Shown: positions 2,216-50,516 of the stretch, in pieces
Layout: each line of letters starts with the position of its first letter
Position numbering within the stretch: the stretch's first letter is position 1
The notes under the pieces: model-generated
Seen by the model: only the letters and a program-made list of their open reading frames with translations
Told to the model about the DNA's origin: nothing
Databases searched by the model: none
Assembly: GCF_041886205.1 (NCBI RefSeq)
Contig: NZ_CP169029.1
Direction: 5' to 3' (one strand)
DNA from: Escherichia coli
GTDB lineage: Bacteria; Pseudomonadota; Gammaproteobacteria; Enterobacterales; Enterobacteriaceae
DNA: 64,000 nucleotides
Made by a program: the position numbers and the translations under genes

Positions 2216-2385
2216 AATGGCTCACTCAAGCTTGCTCACGATTGATTCCAGTAACAAACCGTATTGTGTAATTATTTCTATAGCAGCTCGCTATATAGGT
2301 TTGTATACATCGAATAATTTGAAAATCAAAGAGATAGGTAGATTTTCACTCGAAAGTAGTATTACGTGTAAGTGAGGAGTAATTA

Positions 2386-2399
2386 TTGTTCGGTATCAA
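2386..2399 (-). promoter_or_regulatory. FNR-type site upstream of dmsA (TTGATaccgAACAA on minus strand)
   Basis: Plus strand reads ttgttcggtatcaa. The reverse complement matches TTGAT-N4-ATCAA at 9/10 positions, ~175 bp upstream of the dmsA ATG. dmsABC is a classic FNR-activated operon. Confidence 0.6.
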
Positions 2400-2405
2400 A
2401 GGGAG

Positions 2406-2433
2406 ACAAAAAAAGCGCCCGCAGGCGCTTTTT
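2406..2433 (-). terminator. Rho-independent terminator after serS
   Basis: GCGCC-cgca-GGCGC hairpin flanked by an A-run and a T-run (aaaaaaagcgcccgcaggcgcttttt), 20 bp downstream of the serS stop. The symmetric flanks could also insulate dmsA upstream transcription. Confidence 0.8.
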
Positions 2434-2453
2434 AGATTCAGAAAAATTGGGTA

Positions 2454-17252: not shown

Positions 17253-17340
17253 GGTGAGGTGTCCGAGTGGCTGAAGGAGCACGCCTGGAAAGTGTGTATA
17301 CGGCAACGTATCCGGGGTTCGAATCCCCGCCTCACCGCCA
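17253..17340 (+). tRNA. serW: tRNA-Ser (anticodon GGA), long variable arm, encoded CCA
   Basis: ggtgaggtgtccgagtggctgaaggagcacgcctGGAaagtgtg...ggttcgaatccccgcctcaccgcca. The acceptor stem pairs (ggtgagg/cctcacc), the T-loop GGTTCGAATCC is present, and the anticodon loop is ctGGAaa. Confidence 0.95.
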
Positions 17341-17351
17341 TATTTAAAGAA

Positions 17352-17381
17352 GAGCTCGTACGAAAGTACGAGCTTTTTTTT
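17352..17381 (+). terminator. Rho-independent terminator after serW
   Basis: gagctcgtac-gaaa-gtacgagct hairpin followed by ttttttttc. Confidence 0.85.
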
Positions 17382-17383
17382 CG

Positions 17384-17531
17384 CATTTTATCTGCCTGTA
17401 CGGCAGTGAACATGGTGGGCGGGTGGAGTATGTTACCAGTGAATTTCTAAGCTGCCTGTACGGCAGTGAACGCCAACTTTCACAGCCTTTGCAAGATTGT
17501 TCCTTTCTAAGCTGCCTGTACGGCAGTGAAC
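17384..17531 (-). CRISPR. Orphan type I-F CRISPR mini-array: 3 repeats (28 bp), 2 spacers (32 bp each)
   Basis: Minus-strand repeat GTTCACTGCCGTACAGGCAGCTTAGAAA is perfect at 17504-17531 and 17444-17471. The copy at 17384-17411 keeps the first 20 nt and diverges in the last 8, as a terminal repeat does. Spacers are 17472-17503 and 17412-17443. No cas genes occur anywhere in the window. Confidence 0.9.
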
Positions 17532-17682
17532 TCAAATACTACACGTTTAGCCCGTTGTTAATAAAGCAAAACCATCTCATTTTCCTGCTGTCACCCTTTT
17601 TTATCCTTACCTTCCAGCAGCACTAATTATCAACAACTTACCTTCACCTCCAAAAATAGGGTTTTCACCGTTCCACCCCATA

Positions 17683-17720
17683 AATAAAAAGTCCGCAACC
17701 TCTTTCGAGATTACGGACTT
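17683..17720 (-). terminator. Rho-independent terminator after clpA
   Basis: On the minus strand: aagtccg...cggactt hairpin followed by tttatttat, ~25 bp downstream of the clpA stop. Confidence 0.7.
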
Positions 17721-17743
17721 GACCAACCTACCTAACAATCAGA

Positions 17744-20020
17744 TTAATGCGCTGCTTCCGCCTTGTGCTTTTGTGCACTCTGGAATCCGTAAGTCAGCTC
17801 ATTTTTCTCTTTATCCAGCGCGACGGTGACCTGACCGCCGTCCACCAGCGAACCAAACAGCAGTTCGTTGGCGAGCGGTTTTTTCAGGTTGTCCTGGATG
17901 ACACGCGCCATCGGACGTGCGCCCATTGCCCGGTCGTAACCTTTCTCGGCCAGCCAGTTACGCGCTTCCTGGCTCACTTCCAGAGAAACACCTTTCTGAT
18001 CCAGCTGAACCTGCAACTCGACGATGAATTTATCCACCACCTGATGAATCACGTCGGTTGACAAATGATCAAACCAGATAATGTTGTCGAGACGGTTACG
18101 GAATTCCGGTGTAAAGATCTTCTTGATCTCTTCCATCGCATCGGTGCTGTTATCCTGGTGGATAAGACCAATGGATTTGCGCTCAGTTTCCCGTACCCCG
18201 GCGTTGGTGGTCATCACCAGCACCACGTTACGGAAGTCCGCTTTGCGTCCGTTGTTATCGGTCAGCGTACCGTTGTCCATCACCTGCAACAGAATATTGA
18301 ACACGTCCGGATGCGCTTTCTCGATTTCGTCCAGCAGCAGCACCGCATGTGGATGCTTGATTACCGCATCGGTCAGCAAACCGCCCTGATCAAAACCAAC
18401 GTATCCCGGAGGCGCACCAATCAGACGGCTGACGGTATGGCGTTCCATATACTCGGACATATCAAAGCGCAGAAGCTCAATGCCCAACGCTTTCGAAAGC
18501 TGTACCGTCACCTCTGTTTTCCCGACCCCGGTAGGACCGGCAAACAGGAACGAACCGACCGGTTTATGTTCGTGACCTAAACCTGCACGCGCCATCTTAA
18601 TGGCTTCAGTCAGCGCCTCAATGGCTTTATCCTGACCGAAGACCAGCATTTTCAGGCGATCGCCGAGGTTTTTCAGGGTATCGCGGTCACTCTGAGAAAC
18701 ACTCTTCTCTGGAATGCGTGCAATACGGGCCACCACGGACTCAATATCCGCCACATTTACGGTTTTCTTGCGTTTGCTTACCGGCATCAGGCGTGCGCGA
18801 GCGCCCGCTTCGTCGATAACATCAATCGCTTTATCCGGCAGATGACGATCGTTAATGTATTTCACCGCCAGCTCTACCGCCGCACGCACCGCTTTTGCGG
18901 TATAACGCACGTCGTGGTGCGCTTCATACTTCGGTTTCAGGCCATTGATGATTTGAACAGTTTCTTCGATCGACGGTTCAGTAATATCAATTTTCTGGAA
19001 GCGACGCGCCAGAGCACGGTCTTTCTCGAAAATGTTGCTGAACTCCTGATAGGTTGTCGAACCAATTACGCGAATTTTACCGCTGGAGAGCAACGGTTTG
19101 ATCAGGTTAGCCGCATCGACCTGACCACCAGACGCTGCACCCGCACCGATAATGGTGTGGATCTCATCAATAAACAGGATGCTGTTAGTGTCCTGCTCCA
19201 GCTGCTTGAGCAACGCTTTAAAACGTTTTTCAAAGTCGCCGCGATATTTTGTGCCCGCTAACAGAGAACCGATATCGAGAGAATAAATCGTACAGTCAGC
19301 CATCACTTCCGGCACATCACCCTGAACAATTCGCCAGGCAAGACCTTCTGCAATCGCGGTTTTACCGACACCAGACTCCCCCACCAGCAGCGGGTTGTTT
19401 TTACGGCGACGGCAGAGAACCTGAATAGCACGCTCCAGCTCTTTCTCACGACCAATCAGTGGGTCGATTCCGCCCACACGCGCAAGCTGGTTCAGGTTCG
19501 TCGTGAAATTCTCCATACGTTCCTCCCCACCAGCTTGTTCTTCGCTGTTTGGCTGGCTGCCAGGATCAGAAGACTGTGTCGGCTCGTCTTTACGCGTGCC
19601 ATGAGAGATAAAGTTCACCACATCGAGACGGCTGACTTCATGTTTACGCAACAGATATGCCGCCTGCGACTCCTGTTCGCTAAAGATAGCGACCAGAACG
19701 TTTGCACCGGTAACCTCATTGCGACCGGAGGACTGGACATGGAAGACCGCACGTTGCAGTACACGCTGAAAACTCAGCGTCGGCTGTGTATCGCGCTCCT
19801 CTTCACTGGCAGGCAGAACGGGTGTGGTTTGTTCAATAAAGGCTTCCAGTTCCTGACGGAGCGCAACCAAATCCACAGAACACGCTTCCAGCGCCTCCCG
19901 GGCAGATGGGTTACTGAGCAGCGCCAGTAACAAGTGCTCGACGGTCATAAACTCATGACGGTGCTCGCGCGCTCTGGCGAAAGCCATATTTAAACTGAGT
20001 TCCAGTTCTTGATTGAGCAT
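17744..20020 (-). CDS. clpA: ATP-dependent Clp protease ATPase/unfoldase subunit ClpA
   Basis: The known N-terminus [24 protein letters not shown] starts at 20020 (758 aa); the ORF track adds 5 upstream codons. Two AAA+ modules are present ([16 protein letters not shown]). Confidence 0.97.
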
Positions 20021-20050
20021 AGGCACCTCCCCCAATTTTTATGCCTGCAT

Positions 20051-45928: not shown

Positions 45929-47410
45929 CTACACTAACCCCAGGCGCTGAAACTGCTCTGGCGGCGCATCATTGTCTTTCATCAACTGAATCAGCAACGC
46001 GATCATCCGGGCCTCGATCGCATCATCATGAATCGGATGCAGCTGCTGCGGATCGTTTTGCAGATCAAACAGCAAATGACCAAACTGATTCAGCCCCTTA
46101 TATTTCTCCTGTGCCGGGATGCGTAGCACCTTTAACCCTTTGGTGAAACGAAACGGTGGAGCCAGCGATAAAGCCCGCATCTCATCCACCGGATAGCGGC
46201 TGTTCATTTTGCAAGCCATTAAGGTGTAGTTAGCAATATCATCCTCACGCCCCGGCAGCGCGGCACGCATATACACATAACGCCCATCGGTTACGTTGAC
46301 ATGACCACTGAAGACACCAAATATAACCGCACTGCGTACCGGTTCATCGTGGCTGACCGTTTTCGCCAGCGGTTGCCCCTGCACATCGGGCGGCACCGGC
46401 TGCTGAAAAAAGTCATACAACGTAGGTGCCCAGTCGATCATCTGCACCAGCGCCTGACGCCGTTCGCCTTTTACACCGCTGCGCGGATCCCATATAAACA
46501 GCGGGTTATTCGCCACTTCGTTGTAATAAGGCATCTGGTTTTTCGCCCACCAGCCATGCTCACCAAGTAAAAAACCGTGGTCGGTGCCAACAATCAGCAT
46601 GGTGTCTCGCCACAGATCGTGCTCATCCATCAGGTCGAGAATGCGCCCCAGGTTACGATCGCACATCGATACCAGCGAGCGATATCGGCAGCGGATATGC
46701 TCCACGGCCTCGTCGCTTTCCTGAACCCTGCCACGTGGCCAGTCATAATACGGCCCGCTCCAGTCATCCTCATATAACGAAAGGTACTCTTCCGTTGTGT
46801 AAAACGGCTCGTGCGGATCAAACGTTTCGACCTGCAATAACCAGTTATCTTGCGCGTGGTTTTTGTGGATAAATGCACAACCCGCGTCAAAGACTTTGGT
46901 TTGGGGAAAATCCGCTTCCTGCTGAATATATTCCCGGTTGGCCCAGTCATGACGCCACAGGCCAGAAACACCGCCGCCGGTCTGCTTTTGCGGCTCCCGT
47001 AGCACCTCGGGAATAGGCGGTTGCGCAACGCTCGCCTGCCAGTGATCGCCTTCCTGGCCGCGCACAATCTCCCATGAACTGTAGCGATTATGGTAATTTC
47101 CGCCACCATCTTCCCAGTAATGCAAATGATCGCTTATCAGGTGGGTATAGATCCCCGCCTTTGTAAGCAGCTCCGGCATGGAGTCGTCAAACGGTTCTAA
47201 CGGCCCCCACTCCCGGTGCAGAAAATTGCATCGCCCGGTATGCAGCTCCCGTCGGGCGGGCATGCAGGGCATACTCCCGACGTAGCTGTTTTCAAAGGTG
47301 GCGGCATGTGCCGCCAGGCGTTGGAAGTTCTCTGCTTTTGTCAATAAGTCGCCATACGGGGGTAAATATCTTTTGTTCAGGCTATCGAACAGGAGAATAA
47401 TGGCTTTCAT
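45929..47410 (-). CDS. Cytoplasmic (leaderless) Cys-type sulfatase-family hydrolase
   Basis: 493 aa with no signal peptide. The C-x-P-x-R formylglycine motif CMPAR is at residues 49-53 (nt 47252-47266). The downstream signature is LIVGTDHGFLLGEHGWWAKNQ. It lies 12 bp after the EIIB stop, so it is the last gene of an operon. Confidence 0.85.
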   Translation of the reverse strand: MKAIILLFDSLNKRYLPPYGDLLTKAENFQRLAAHAATFENSYVGSMPCMPARRELHTGRCNFLHREWGPLEPFDDSMPELLTKAGIYTHLISDHLHYWEDGGGNYHNRYSSWEIVRGQEGDHWQASVAQPPIPEVLREPQKQTGGGVSGLWRHDWANREYIQQEADFPQTKVFDAGCAFIHKNHAQDNWLLQVETFDPHEPFYTTEEYLSLYEDDWSGPYYDWPRGRVQESDEAVEHIRCRYRSLVSMCDRNLGRILDLMDEHDLWRDTMLIVGTDHGFLLGEHGWWAKNQMPYYNEVANNPLFIWDPRSGVKGERRQALVQMIDWAPTLYDFFQQPVPPDVQGQPLAKTVSHDEPVRSAVIFGVFSGHVNVTDGRYVYMRAALPGREDDIANYTLMACKMNSRYPVDEMRALSLAPPFRFTKGLKVLRIPAQEKYKGLNQFGHLLFDLQNDPQQLHPIHDDAIEARMIALLIQLMKDNDAPPEQFQRLGLV

Positions 47411-47422
47411 TGCTCATCCCTT

Positions 47423-47743
47423 TTATTTGTTTATCAGATAAGGGAAATGCTGTTGGACGACTTCATAAATCTGTGCACCAATCGTTTCACCATCCATAAT
47501 ATTTTCAATCGGGATCAGATATTGCCCGTGTTTCGGGTCCAGACTGACTACGTCGAGTAATTTTTTGGAAATAGCAAAAATATCTGCCCAGTCGGTAAAT
47601 CCTCCCACCTCACCTGCGGCAGTATGTTCCATTTCAACTTTGAACTCATATTTCGTCAGTGCTTTTTTAACGACCGTTTGTAACATCACGCTACTACCGA
47701 CACCATAACCACAGACAAACAGAATATTAATTGTATCTTTCAT
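47423..47743 (-). CDS. PTS EIIB component, ascorbate/lactose-type (PTS_IIB fold)
   Basis: 106 aa. MKDTINILFVCGYGVGSSVML contains the phospho-Cys loop CGxGxGSS seen in UlaB/SgaB-like IIB proteins. Confidence 0.85.
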   Translation of the reverse strand: MKDTINILFVCGYGVGSSVMLQTVVKKALTKYEFKVEMEHTAAGEVGGFTDWADIFAISKKLLDVVSLDPKHGQYLIPIENIMDGETIGAQIYEVVQQHFPYLINK

Positions 47744-47764
47744 TTTTACATCCTTAATAGTGAA

Positions 47765-49108
47765 TTATCCCGCGTAAGGACCAAGGTGGAATGTTGCAGC
47801 GATAAATTTCAGAACTTCACAAATAGCAGGCCATACAGTTGCCCAGTCAAATATTCCTGTCCAGCCGACGCCATTTTCAGCAAGCCCGGTTAACGGAATA
47901 GCCCACACCGTACCGAAGGTCTGAATAATACCCAGCAAGAAGGTACAGATAATTACGGAGCGGTATCCGCCCATGCGGTTTGCTAAAACGCCAATCGGGC
48001 CGCCTGAGAAAAATAACGGTACAAAGCCTGGCAATACCATAATGGGGCTGTGGATCAGTAATAAGATACCCATCGAGAAAATGGTGCCAAAAGTACAGAA
48101 GACAAAACCTAACGTTGCGGCTTTGGGTGAAAAAGGCAACAGCGCGGCGACATCGACGGCGGGAATGGCATTAGGAATAAAGCGATCCTGCCAGCCTTTA
48201 AAAGAACCGTTAATTTCACCGACCATCATGCGCACGCCCTGCAACAGAATGACCATGTACATGGAGAACTGTAAGCCCAGGTTGATAATATAGATGTACC
48301 AGGGTTTACCTTTTGCCATCATCTGAACGTTATCGATGCCCGTGGAGAGCAGGAACCCGCCAACAAACAGCGTCATCACAATGGCGATAGCCGTCACGTT
48401 GTGGTTAAAAATCGCCAGCCAGCCGGGGAGTTTCAGGTTTTCAGCATCGTGCTTTTCCGGGTCGCCAAATTTATGCGCGAATTTGGAGAAAAACCACAAA
48501 CCCAACATCTGGTTATGGGCAATGGTAAAACCGGCATCTTTGGTCACTTTGGCAATGGGTTTAGCAATGAGCGTGGTGGAAAAAGCCCAGAATATACCCG
48601 TTAATACCCCGGCGATAATAATCGATGTAGTCCAGCTAAATCCTAACCAAAAAACGATTAACCATAATACTGCCTGAGAATGTGACACACCGGTATTACC
48701 GGTCAGGAATATTCCTTTGGCACCGGTATAGCGACCAAACAGCACCAGTAAGAGGTTGGTAAAAAACGCCAGAACAAATACATAACCTACGTAACCAAAA
48801 TTATCCCCCAACGCAATTTGCGTTGCGGCTTTCATGGCGTAGGAATCCATTAAATAACCGTGAACGCCATAGGCTTTACTTACCGCTTCTGCCACCGGTT
48901 TAAAGGTTGCGGAAAACTGAAAACCACCAAATAGCACCATCATTAATCCCACCATGGCACTGACCATACCGGTGATTATTTTGATGGGCGATTTTTTATC
49001 GAGGGCATAACCAATGCCCACCAGCAAACCAATTAATATTGCGGGTTCGGTTAAAAACGTTTGAATAACATCTATGAATTTGGCAAACATCGTCGGAACG
49101 CCCTCCAT
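47765..49108 (-). CDS. PTS EIIC component, L-ascorbate (UlaA/SgaT) family permease
   Basis: 447-aa polytopic membrane protein with UlaA-like sequence character. The start is ambiguous: the ATG at 49108 lacks a Shine-Dalgarno, while the ATG at 49090 lies ~11 nt after GGAGGG. Confidence 0.8.
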   Translation of the reverse strand: MEGVPTMFAKFIDVIQTFLTEPAILIGLLVGIGYALDKKSPIKIITGMVSAMVGLMMVLFGGFQFSATFKPVAEAVSKAYGVHGYLMDSYAMKAATQIALGDNFGYVGYVFVLAFFTNLLLVLFGRYTGAKGIFLTGNTGVSHSQAVLWLIVFWLGFSWTTSIIIAGVLTGIFWAFSTTLIAKPIAKVTKDAGFTIAHNQMLGLWFFSKFAHKFGDPEKHDAENLKLPGWLAIFNHNVTAIAIVMTLFVGGFLLSTGIDNVQMMAKGKPWYIYIINLGLQFSMYMVILLQGVRMMVGEINGSFKGWQDRFIPNAIPAVDVAALLPFSPKAATLGFVFCTFGTIFSMGILLLIHSPIMVLPGFVPLFFSGGPIGVLANRMGGYRSVIICTFLLGIIQTFGTVWAIPLTGLAENGVGWTGIFDWATVWPAICEVLKFIAATFHLGPYAG

Positions 49109-49263
49109 AAGCGTACATTTCCGTTGTCAATGCATGAACCTTCTGCTGACGTTAATAATGCTTCAGGTATTTTTTATTTTTCGCTAAGCGATGCCTCTGC
49201 TAGTATTCGGTAAACGCACTGTAGTAATCAAAACAGTTCATTTAAAGATCTTATTTGATTATT

Positions 49264-49279
49264 TGTGATTTGATTTGCA
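49264..49279. promoter_or_regulatory. Weak CRP-like site upstream of the PTS-sulfatase operon
   Basis: TGTGAtttgatTTGCA compared with TGTGA-N6-TCACA has a perfect left half and 3/5 in the right half. It lies ~160-175 bp upstream of the EIIC start. Confidence 0.3.
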
Positions 49280-49294
49280 AAAATAGCGCAATAT

Positions 49295-49340
49295 ATAACC
49301 GTGATCGATCGGTTAATATTAATCGATCGATCACGGTTAT
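49295..49340. promoter_or_regulatory. 46-bp palindrome (17-bp perfect arms, 12-nt AT spacer): candidate operator or rlmC 3' hairpin
   Basis: ataaccgtgatcgatcg-gttaatattaat-cgatcgatcacggttat. It lies between the rlmC stop (49389) and the EIIC start (49108). Confidence 0.6.
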
Positions 49341-49388
49341 TATTTGGAATGGATGTATGCCGAAGTGATATTGATTTGAGTGATGTAT

Positions 49389-50516
49389 TTACATTTTTAC
49401 CAGCAGCGTCAGCACTTCATAGTGCGCGGTGTGCGGGAACATATCAAAAAGCTGTACCCGTTCAATACGAAACCCAGGCAGTTCGCGGATATCTTTCGCC
49501 ATAGTTTGGGCGTTACAGCTGGAGTAGATAATAAAACGCGGTGCCATCGTTGAGAGATAATCACACAGCGGTTTACCAATGCCGCGGCGCGGCGGGTTAA
49601 CCAGCACCAGCTCCGGCACCTCCCCCTGAGCGGTGGCAAACTGAGTGGAGTCCAGCGCCTGAAATTGCAAACGCGTTAAGCCCAGTTCAGCGGCTGACTG
49701 CTTTGCACAGGCAATGGCCTCTGGCGCAATTTCGATCCCGGTTAACTGCATGTCAGGCGTCGCGCAGTGTAAACCAAAGCCCCCCACACCGCAGAACAGA
49801 TCCCACATATGTTTAACCGGCAGCTGTCGTACCCAGTCGCGCGCGGTGGCGTACAACTGGCTGGCGACAGCCGGATTAGTCTGGAAGAAACTTTGCGGAC
49901 GGATCCACAGCGGTACGTCATTAAAACGCTCCGCCAGCGACTGTTGTTCGGTCAGGTAGATCTCCGTCTCCCCTTCCATAATCGCCATATGTACCGGCTG
50001 AATATTGACGGTAATAACTTTCAGCTGCGGTAGTTGTTCCTGTAACCACGGCAATGCCTTACGCAGTTGTGCCAGTTTGGTTTCAGAACGCAGTACAAAG
50101 CGCAGCATCATGCCGCCATCGCTCTGGCTTTCAGTCAGCAGAATGTATTTCAGTTCGCCACGCTTACGCGCCACGTTGTAGGGCGTTAACCCCGCTCGGG
50201 CGATAAACGGTTTTAGCGCCGCAAAAACGGGCGCAAATGAGGCAGGATAAAGCGGGCAGTCACAAAGGTCTTCTGGTGTGCCGTCGCGATGCAGCATACC
50301 GAGCAGTGGTTTTTCAACGCTACCACTCACCACCATTTTGGCTTTATTACGAAACCCTTGTTCCGGGCCTGACACCGGCGCGCACCATTCCTCAACCGGA
50401 AAGTCGGCGAGCAGATTTTTAAGATCGGCGGTTTTAGCGGAGAGTTGCTCTGGAATCGGCTGCGTTATCCACTGACAGGAACGACAGCGACCCGCGTCGT
50501 AAAGTGCGCACTGCAT
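49389..50516 (-). CDS. rlmC: 23S rRNA m5U747 methyltransferase
   Basis: 375 aa starting [33 protein letters not shown] (Fe-S Cys cluster), with a C-terminal SAM-MTase. Confidence 0.95.

Follow-up and report, generated by a model that had tools for sequence, protein, structure and literature searches.

The short repeat array between serW and clpA in the stretch of Escherichia coli DNA analysed here (the window, 64 kb in all; array at positions 17384–17531, minus strand) is the known orphan type I-F CRISPR array that most strains of this species carry, called CRISPR3 by Touchon and Rocha and CRISPR4.1-2 by the Mojica group. Both of its spacers are directed against genes of I-F CRISPR-Cas systems themselves, cas1f and cas3f, and we consider it very probable that the resident array acts as an anti-cas device against an incoming I-F operon. 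This anti-cas content, and the fact that array and function have been published, were overlooked in the initial annotation of this DNA; the locus, its spacers and the anti-cas role were described between 2010 and 2016, and nothing here is new in kind. Our own evidence is the anatomy of the array, its homologous leader, the absence of cas genes from the window, the PAM-flanked protospacers in cas1f and cas3f, the failure to find other targets and the frequency of the locus among genomes, while constitutive expression and interference with plasmids carrying cas-F genes are taken from the literature. That the array of this particular strain behaves as the published orphan arrays do is inferred by analogy with them.

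The array is built of two exact 28-nt I-F repeats, a degenerate terminal copy and two spacers (Table 1). An exact pattern search finds the repeat GTTCACTGCCGTACAGGCAGCTTAGAAA exactly twice in the 64-kb window, both times on the minus strand (R2 and R1), and 0 of 100 shuffled sequences contain a match to it. Repeat finding places the third copy in register with the other two, at start-to-start spacings of 60 and 60 nt; on the minus strand it reads GTTCACTGCCGTACAGGCAGATAAAATG, with nucleotides 1–20 identical to the consensus and the final 8 degenerate. The spacers S1 and S2, each 32 nt long, are unrelated to one another. Both perfect repeats match the Rfam family RF01317 (CRISPR-DR4) on the minus strand over the full 28/28 positions of the model, and R3 falls short of the gathering score of that family, which is 35. 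This family corresponds to Kunin repeat cluster 4 and to the type I-F repeat. The repeats are also identical to those that flank cas1f-cas3f-csy1-csy2-csy3-cas6f in E. coli MS20655 and ETEC-2264, and elsewhere the same repeat builds arrays of 8 to 30 units beside I-F cas genes. The repeat search and the Rfam matches thus bear out the initial annotation in its description of the array (two perfect minus-strand repeats, a 3′-degenerate copy and two 32-bp spacers), and the Rfam score and the identity with the MS20655 and ETEC-2264 repeats do the same for its assignment to the I-F family.

Table 1. Coordinates of the array, its flanking features and the open reading frames of the artJ–rlmC segment within the window.
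Feature	Position	Strand	Basis or remark
serW, tRNA-Ser(GGA)	17253–17340	+	between infA and the array
serW terminator hairpin	17346–17381	+	terminator scan; hairpin and T-run end at 17381
Terminal repeat R3, GTTCACTGCCGTACAGGCAG followed by ATAAAATG	17384–17411	-	Rfam 29.7 bits, under gathering score
Spacer S2, TTCACTGGTAACATACTCCACCCGCCCACCAT	17412–17443	-	32 nt; anti-cas1f
Repeat R2, internal	17444–17471	-	exact consensus; Rfam CRISPR-DR4 50.1 bits
Spacer S1, GGAACAATCTTGCAAAGGCTGTGAAAGTTGGC	17472–17503	-	32 nt; anti-cas3f; not in K-12
Repeat R1, leader-proximal	17504–17531	-	exact consensus GTTCACTGCCGTACAGGCAGCTTAGAAA; Rfam CRISPR-DR4 50.1 bits
Array leader	17532–17688	-	between clpA terminator and first repeat; homology to leader of cas-positive strains
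clpA intrinsic terminator	17689–17720	-	terminator scan; hairpin and T-run
clpA	17744–20035	-	separated from the leader by its terminator
Sulfatase ORF	45929–47410	-	in artJ–rlmC segment
PTS IIB component ORF	47423–47743	-	in artJ–rlmC segment
PTS EIIC-GAT permease ORF	47765–49108	-	in artJ–rlmC segment

The repeat is predicted to form the hairpin CUGCC-GUACA-GGCAG, with a 5-bp stem and a 5-nt loop, at .....(((((.....)))))........ of its 28 nucleotides. For R3 the same hairpin is predicted as for the perfect repeats (-8.6 kcal/mol), and nothing is altered in the 20 nt from which the Cas6f hairpin and the 3′ end of the crRNA derive; degeneracy is limited to the last 8 nt, the would-be 5′ handle of a next spacer that is absent here. 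The ATAAAATG tail of the terminal repeat recurs in CFT073, K-12 and Shigella flexneri: CFT073 shares the tail ...GGCAGATAAAATG, and K-12 and S. flexneri carry one further C-to-T change (plus strand). A conserved modified terminal repeat in CRISPR3 was pointed out by Touchon and Rocha in 2010 (PMC2886076). As to where the tail came from, CGCATTTTAT does not occur in the MS20655 sequence downstream of serW, and no simple deletion junction could be reconstructed. A scan of genome contigs with the exact orphan terminal-repeat pattern returned 0 loci, the K-12-type substitution in that stretch being one that escapes an exact pattern. Folding the whole array as a single RNA gave nothing significant (z = -1.2). 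In type I-F terms, then, the locus has the 28-nt family repeat with its hairpin, regular and unique spacers of about 32 nt and the CC PAM, and has no adjacent operon of cas1f, cas2-3f, csy1-3 and cas6f. Because that operon is missing there is no complete CRISPR-Cas system here, which leaves membership in the repeat family unaffected.

The window as a whole is E. coli chromosome, in the order dmsA-serS-rarA-lolA-ftsK-lrp-trxB-cydDC-aat-infA-serW-array-clpA-clpS-cspD-macBA and onward, and is colinear with strain XJ5.2, with 99.97% identity over window positions 1–27239. On one side the array comes within 2 nt of the serW terminator (17382–17383), essentially the 3 bp given in the initial annotation. 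Read on the minus strand, the serW palindrome (17374–17353, then CTTCTTT) is also terminator-like by score and could end the transcript of the array. On the other side, the intrinsic terminator of clpA separates clpA transcription from the array and its leader, which are read from the same strand. The interval from the first repeat to the clpA stop (17532–17743), which contains the leader, has a G+C content of 40%, against 51% for the window. Over 184 nt, the sequence that precedes the first repeat shows homology to the leader that cas-positive strains have at their clpA-proximal array; leader and first repeat align with the cas-positive arrays, and the approximately 100 nt adjoining the repeat are nearly invariant. 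This homology supports a leader on the clpA side, as first annotated. A strict sigma-70 scan detected no promoter in the leader. With a relaxed scan the candidates are weak: one -10-like hexamer, GATAAT, ends at 17626 and another, TAGTAT, at 17536. Both are also kept in the cas-positive leaders, and their promoter activity is putative.

In the cas-positive strains MS20655 and ETEC-2264 the region reads infA, array, serW, cas6f-csy3-csy2-csy1-cas3f-cas1f, array, clpA. The clpA–infA interval is therefore the seat of the I-F operon in cas-positive strains, as the initial annotation had stated, and the array studied here is the counterpart of their clpA-proximal array. The window shows no trace of the second array, which in those strains lies between infA and serW; in the nomenclature of Touchon the array here is CRISPR3, and CRISPR4 (serW–infA) is missing. 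Some other E. coli genomes have a longer serW–clpA interval with one or two features annotated in RefSeq as "RtT sRNA".

The 64-kb window contains no cas ORF, either in the serW–clpA interval or elsewhere, and its gene order matches that of XJ5.2, where the annotation likewise has no cas gene. Beyond the 64 kb, orphan status was judged through XJ5.2 alone as a proxy genome: a chimeric query of clpA interior plus csy3, run at megablast sensitivity, finds a single place in its chromosome, accounted for by the clpA part, and so no csy3. The absence of the cas operon at this locus, claimed earlier, is upheld by the window and by the XJ5.2 chromosome. Elsewhere in the genome collection about 243 extra places match csy3. 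I-F cas genes occur in approximately 4.5% of complete E. coli genomes, and in every cas-positive genome that we inspected the operon lies between serW and clpA, where the window has none.

The E. coli I-F PAM is GG on the complementary strand, that is, CC 5′ on the spacer-sense strand (Almendros 2012, PMC3506596). In MS20655 (locus L003), S2 matches cas1f at 31/32 positions, with a mismatch at position 4 and a CC PAM, and S1 matches cas3f at 29/32, with mismatches at 10, 13 and 19 and TC where CC is expected. In ETEC-2264 (L004), the corresponding values are 30/32 for S2 (mismatches 4 and 10, PAM CC) and 31/32 for S1 (mismatch at 19, PAM CC). Among the sequences examined the best match to both spacers is the I-F operon of Escherichia ruysiae, which adjoins a 30-repeat array: S2 fits its cas1f at 32/32 (L007, 1912–1943) and S1 its cas3f at 31/32, with a mismatch at 10 (L007, 346–377), each with a CC PAM. 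The variant of S2 found here, unlike that of K-12, thus fits an existing cas1f allele perfectly; a scan of genome contigs with the 22-nt core of S2 returned 5 loci, the E. ruysiae cas1f protospacer among them. In E. coli genomes, S1 and S2 match only arrays and I-F cas genes and no other target, and when the two were concatenated and searched against 72,556 plasmid and 50,697 phage records there was no match at E<=1.

Within E. coli no cas-F allele is matched perfectly by S1 or by S2, and all 520 perfect matches of S1 are arrays. The two allele groups of the species are covered unequally, S1 matching the ETEC-2264 type well and the B2 type poorly. The commonest allele is of the MS20655/UTI89 type, found in about 200 genomes, and its S1 protospacer reads G1A2C3 on the complementary strand. 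Under the rule of Almendros 2012 (PMC3506596) this PAM should be non-interfering, and S1, which also has three mismatches there, should be ineffective against this common B2-type allele. The S2 mismatch at position 4, present with both the MS20655 and the ETEC-2264 alleles, lies inside the usual type I seed, and against the B2-type operon S2 is predicted mainly to prime. Protospacer and PAM together show 1–4 mismatches in 34 nt, and the gene-wide divergence is 4–8% for cas1f and 6–13% for cas3f. As the mismatch density is at or below this divergence, we reject the idea that the cas-F alleles are escape variants shaped by the arrays.

A role for this locus against CRISPR itself was proposed by Touchon and Rocha in 2010 (PMC2886076), who defined CRISPR3 as lying from clpS to tRNA-Ser and found that its spacers 1 and 2 match Cas1 and Cas3 of the Ypest subtype. 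The results of Almendros et al. 2016 (Nat Microbiol 1:16081), which we take from two reviews by the same group (PMC8616872, PMC5972030), are that native orphan arrays are expressed constitutively, prime the acquisition of spacers and interfere with plasmids that bear a complete I-F cas set. The mechanism that we propose for the present array follows from these reports and from its anatomy. The array would be transcribed on the minus strand, from the conserved leader toward serW, and the transcript would be inert alone in a cell without Cas6f and Csy proteins. Were an I-F cas operon to enter, its Cas6f would be expected to cut the pre-crRNA after each repeat hairpin. Cas6f (Csy4) cleaves after the hairpin, at repeat position 20. 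Cleavage would release two canonical crRNAs of 60 nt, in each of which a 32-nt spacer stands between the 8-nt CUUAGAAA handle and a 20-nt hairpin. R1 would provide the CUUAGAAA 5′ handle of the S1 crRNA; R2 would close that crRNA with a 3′ hairpin and supply S2 with its 5′ handle. The degenerate R3 would still give the hairpin that the S2 crRNA needs, and its degenerate 8 nt would be needed by no crRNA. Loaded with these crRNAs, the incoming Csy complex would be led by S2 to cas1f and by S1 to cas3f of the incoming operon, in each case to a CC-flanked protospacer, so that the incoming Cas2-3 would degrade the DNA that encodes it. Where the match is partial, the outcome would instead be primed spacer uptake, which would strengthen the attack. 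The net outcome would be that a functional I-F system is unable to establish itself in the cell.

We surveyed the frequency of the array in 5,426 complete E. coli genomes. S1 with its repeat flanks is present in 520/5,426, in an array context each time, and S2 in array context in 1,981/5,426, of which 544 carry exactly the variant seen here. The S2-repeat-S1 junction occurs in 387/5,426 genomes; at least one match to the junction query, mostly the repeat alone, is found in 5,158/5,426. The cas3f protospacer of S1 is present in 241 genomes, at 31/32 in 40 of them and at 29/32 in the other 201, and the cas1f protospacer of S2, at 31/32, in 195. S1 arrays and cas3f protospacers together account for 762 places in 761 genomes, so that at most one genome holds both, against approximately 23 expected if the two were independent, an exclusion that is confounded by phylogeny and by the shared descent of the locus. 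For S2 arrays (1,981) and cas1f protospacers (195), the number of genomes with two places is likewise at most three. These three, and the single genome with two S1 places, could be rare cases of an array together with an I-F operon, or could carry duplications.

Spacer content differs among the strains that share the array, which is also found in O157:H7, K-12, CFT073 and Nissle 1917. The alignment with K-12 BW25113 has a single clean gap of 60 bp on the K-12 side, which corresponds to one repeat plus S1. The earlier estimate, made from MG1655 coordinates for aqpZ and lrp, that this interval is 60 bp longer than in K-12 was therefore correct, as was the suggestion that the strain holds one spacer more. 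K-12 retains S2, altered by one substitution at spacer position 6; the spacer starts TTCACTGG... here and TTCACAGG... in K-12. The arrays of K-12 and O157 have S2 only, and that of CFT073 (L012, 395–482) has S1 alone with the same degenerate terminal repeat. In S. flexneri SFBU1023 (L008, 7124–7270), the K-12 variant of S2 is accompanied by a different, leader-proximal spacer of 31 nt, which matches cas3f with a CC PAM, given a 1-nt deletion in a G-run. The S1/S2 content (S2 only, S1 only, or both) therefore sorts lineages and could serve strain typing. At the S1 and S2 array matches the RefSeq annotation is "none" in most genomes; three-repeat arrays of this kind often go unannotated in RefSeq, and "orphan I-F anti-cas arrays" is an apt label for them.

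The arrangement of the two targets allows a tentative history of the array. The S1 protospacer lies 1.5 kb from that of S2, toward the PAM of the latter and on the strand against which the S2 crRNA is directed. This geometry fits the strand rule of I-F priming (PMC4678832), if "upstream" there means the PAM side, and suggests that S1 was acquired by priming from S2. The second spacer of S. flexneri, acquired independently, has the same geometry relative to the S2 protospacer. S1 and S2 may accordingly be the fossil of one episode of primed adaptation against an E. ruysiae-like I-F operon, with S2 as the primer and S1 captured on the leader side, a possibility to which we give less than even chances. 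If it were true, the two-spacer array would be ancestral, and the arrays of K-12 and CFT073 would have arisen by loss of one repeat-spacer unit.

Three other readings of the locus have to be weighed against the anti-cas device. A locus so tiny, with three units that adjoin a terminator and that automated annotation mostly leaves unmarked, might hold no CRISPR at all, its repeats being chance palindromes, REP-like elements or part of the serW terminator. However, exact 28-nt repeats at an exact 60-nt spacing that shuffling never reproduced, scores above the CRISPR-DR4 gathering threshold, identity with the repeats of 8- to 30-unit arrays beside I-F cas genes, and protospacers in cas genes with the correct PAM leave this reading practically no credence; the repeat, Rfam and protospacer tests already refute it. 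Slightly less far-fetched, and still very improbable, is that the array is no orphan and is served by an I-F or compatible cas operon outside the window, as part of ordinary adaptive immunity. Our view is limited to 64 kb of the genome, and some complete E. coli genomes do have I-F cas genes, yet in all those inspected the operon sits in the very interval that is empty here, and the near-identical XJ5.2 chromosome is without csy3. Such an operon would moreover be self-destructive, with S1 and S2 hitting its own cas3f and cas1f, and at most one genome pairs an S1 array with the cas3f protospacer. Ordinary immunity also fits poorly with spacers that match no phage or plasmid.

More serious, and in our judgement still unlikely, is the reading of the array as a neutral remnant, functionless and kept by inertia, of an ancestral I-F locus that lost its cas genes by deletion. 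Cas genes are indeed missing from the window, only two spacers are left and the leader has no strict promoter consensus. The deletion of the cas genes is said to have been suggested by Diez-Villasenor in 2010 as possibly following the acquisition of self-targeting spacers. The existence of single-spacer derivatives (S2 only in K-12, S1 only in CFT073) implies that repeat-spacer units are being lost, and nothing points to a continuing arms race, since mismatches are no denser in the protospacers than across the cas genes as a whole. On the other hand, inertia does not readily account for perfect repeats and a conserved leader in thousands of genomes across phylogroups, nor for the fact that each retained spacer examined targets cas-F and nothing else. 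Spacers are otherwise often deleted, yet those of CRISPR3 persist (Touchon and Rocha, PMC2886076), and native orphan arrays have interfered in experiments, as reviewed (PMC8616872, PMC5972030). We therefore favor the anti-cas device.

Some further features of the window deserve mention apart from the array. A segment of approximately 3.5 kb between artJ and rlmC (45886–49395) is missing from the otherwise colinear XJ5.2 chromosome; its three ORFs (Table 1) have no match in PADLOC, and from their predicted products the segment looks like a small accessory cassette for sugar-sulfate utilisation. Between ybjQ and ybjP, a 600-aa ORF (38902–40704, minus strand) has weak pentapeptide-repeat matches, and its XJ5.2 counterpart is annotated as "pentapeptide repeat-containing protein"; we know of no such ORF in the K-12 gene order. 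XJ5.2 carries two IS1 insertions, one upstream of aqpZ (L010, 27241–28008) and one inside ybjI (L011, 10540–11307). Both are absent from the window (at about 27239 and 63008), which is thus from a close relative of XJ5.2 and a different strain. Two small RNAs reach the Rfam gathering level, STnc130 at 2306–2440 (plus strand, 140 bits) and RybB at 60980–61058 (plus strand, 104 bits), both ordinary enterobacterial sRNAs.

Among known systems, the closest to the present array is the orphan CRISPR4.1-2 (Diez-Villasenor 2010; Almendros 2014 and 2016), or CRISPR3 (Touchon and Rocha 2010), itself. CRISPR4.1-2 is the name given to the single array of strains that lack cas genes (Almendros 2014, PMC3903273), and the two share the locus between clpA/clpS and tRNA-Ser, the 28-nt repeat, the degenerate terminal repeat, the leader and the lack of I-F cas genes at that locus, with spacers 1 and 2 of Touchon corresponding to the spacers here. 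Locus and leader side, spacers that are all directed against I-F cas genes and a conserved terminal repeat thus place it among the orphan anti-cas arrays. Within that group it has the two-spacer form, with both S1 and S2, as against the S2-only arrays of K-12 and O157 and the S1-only array of CFT073. The CRISPR4.1 array (CRISPR3 of Touchon) of the cas-positive strains LF82, UTI89, ED1a, MS20655 and ETEC-2264 has the same repeat, leader, clpA-side position and orientation, but it contains at least 8 spacers and adjoins cas1f, and in MS20655 the last 8 nt of its terminal repeat are TATTCACA instead of ATAAAATG. The spacers of cas-positive arrays are directed mostly against plasmids and not against cas genes (PMC2886076, PMC5972030). 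Mini-arrays and solitary repeat units of phages and other mobile elements (PMC8616872) are also tiny, have no cas genes and need Cas proteins in trans. In contrast to these, the array described here is chromosomal, would take its Cas proteins from the invader rather than from the host, and has the cas operon of that invader as its target. It exemplifies CRISPR against CRISPR-Cas, in which chromosomally encoded guide RNAs would direct an incoming I-F system against the genes that encode it.
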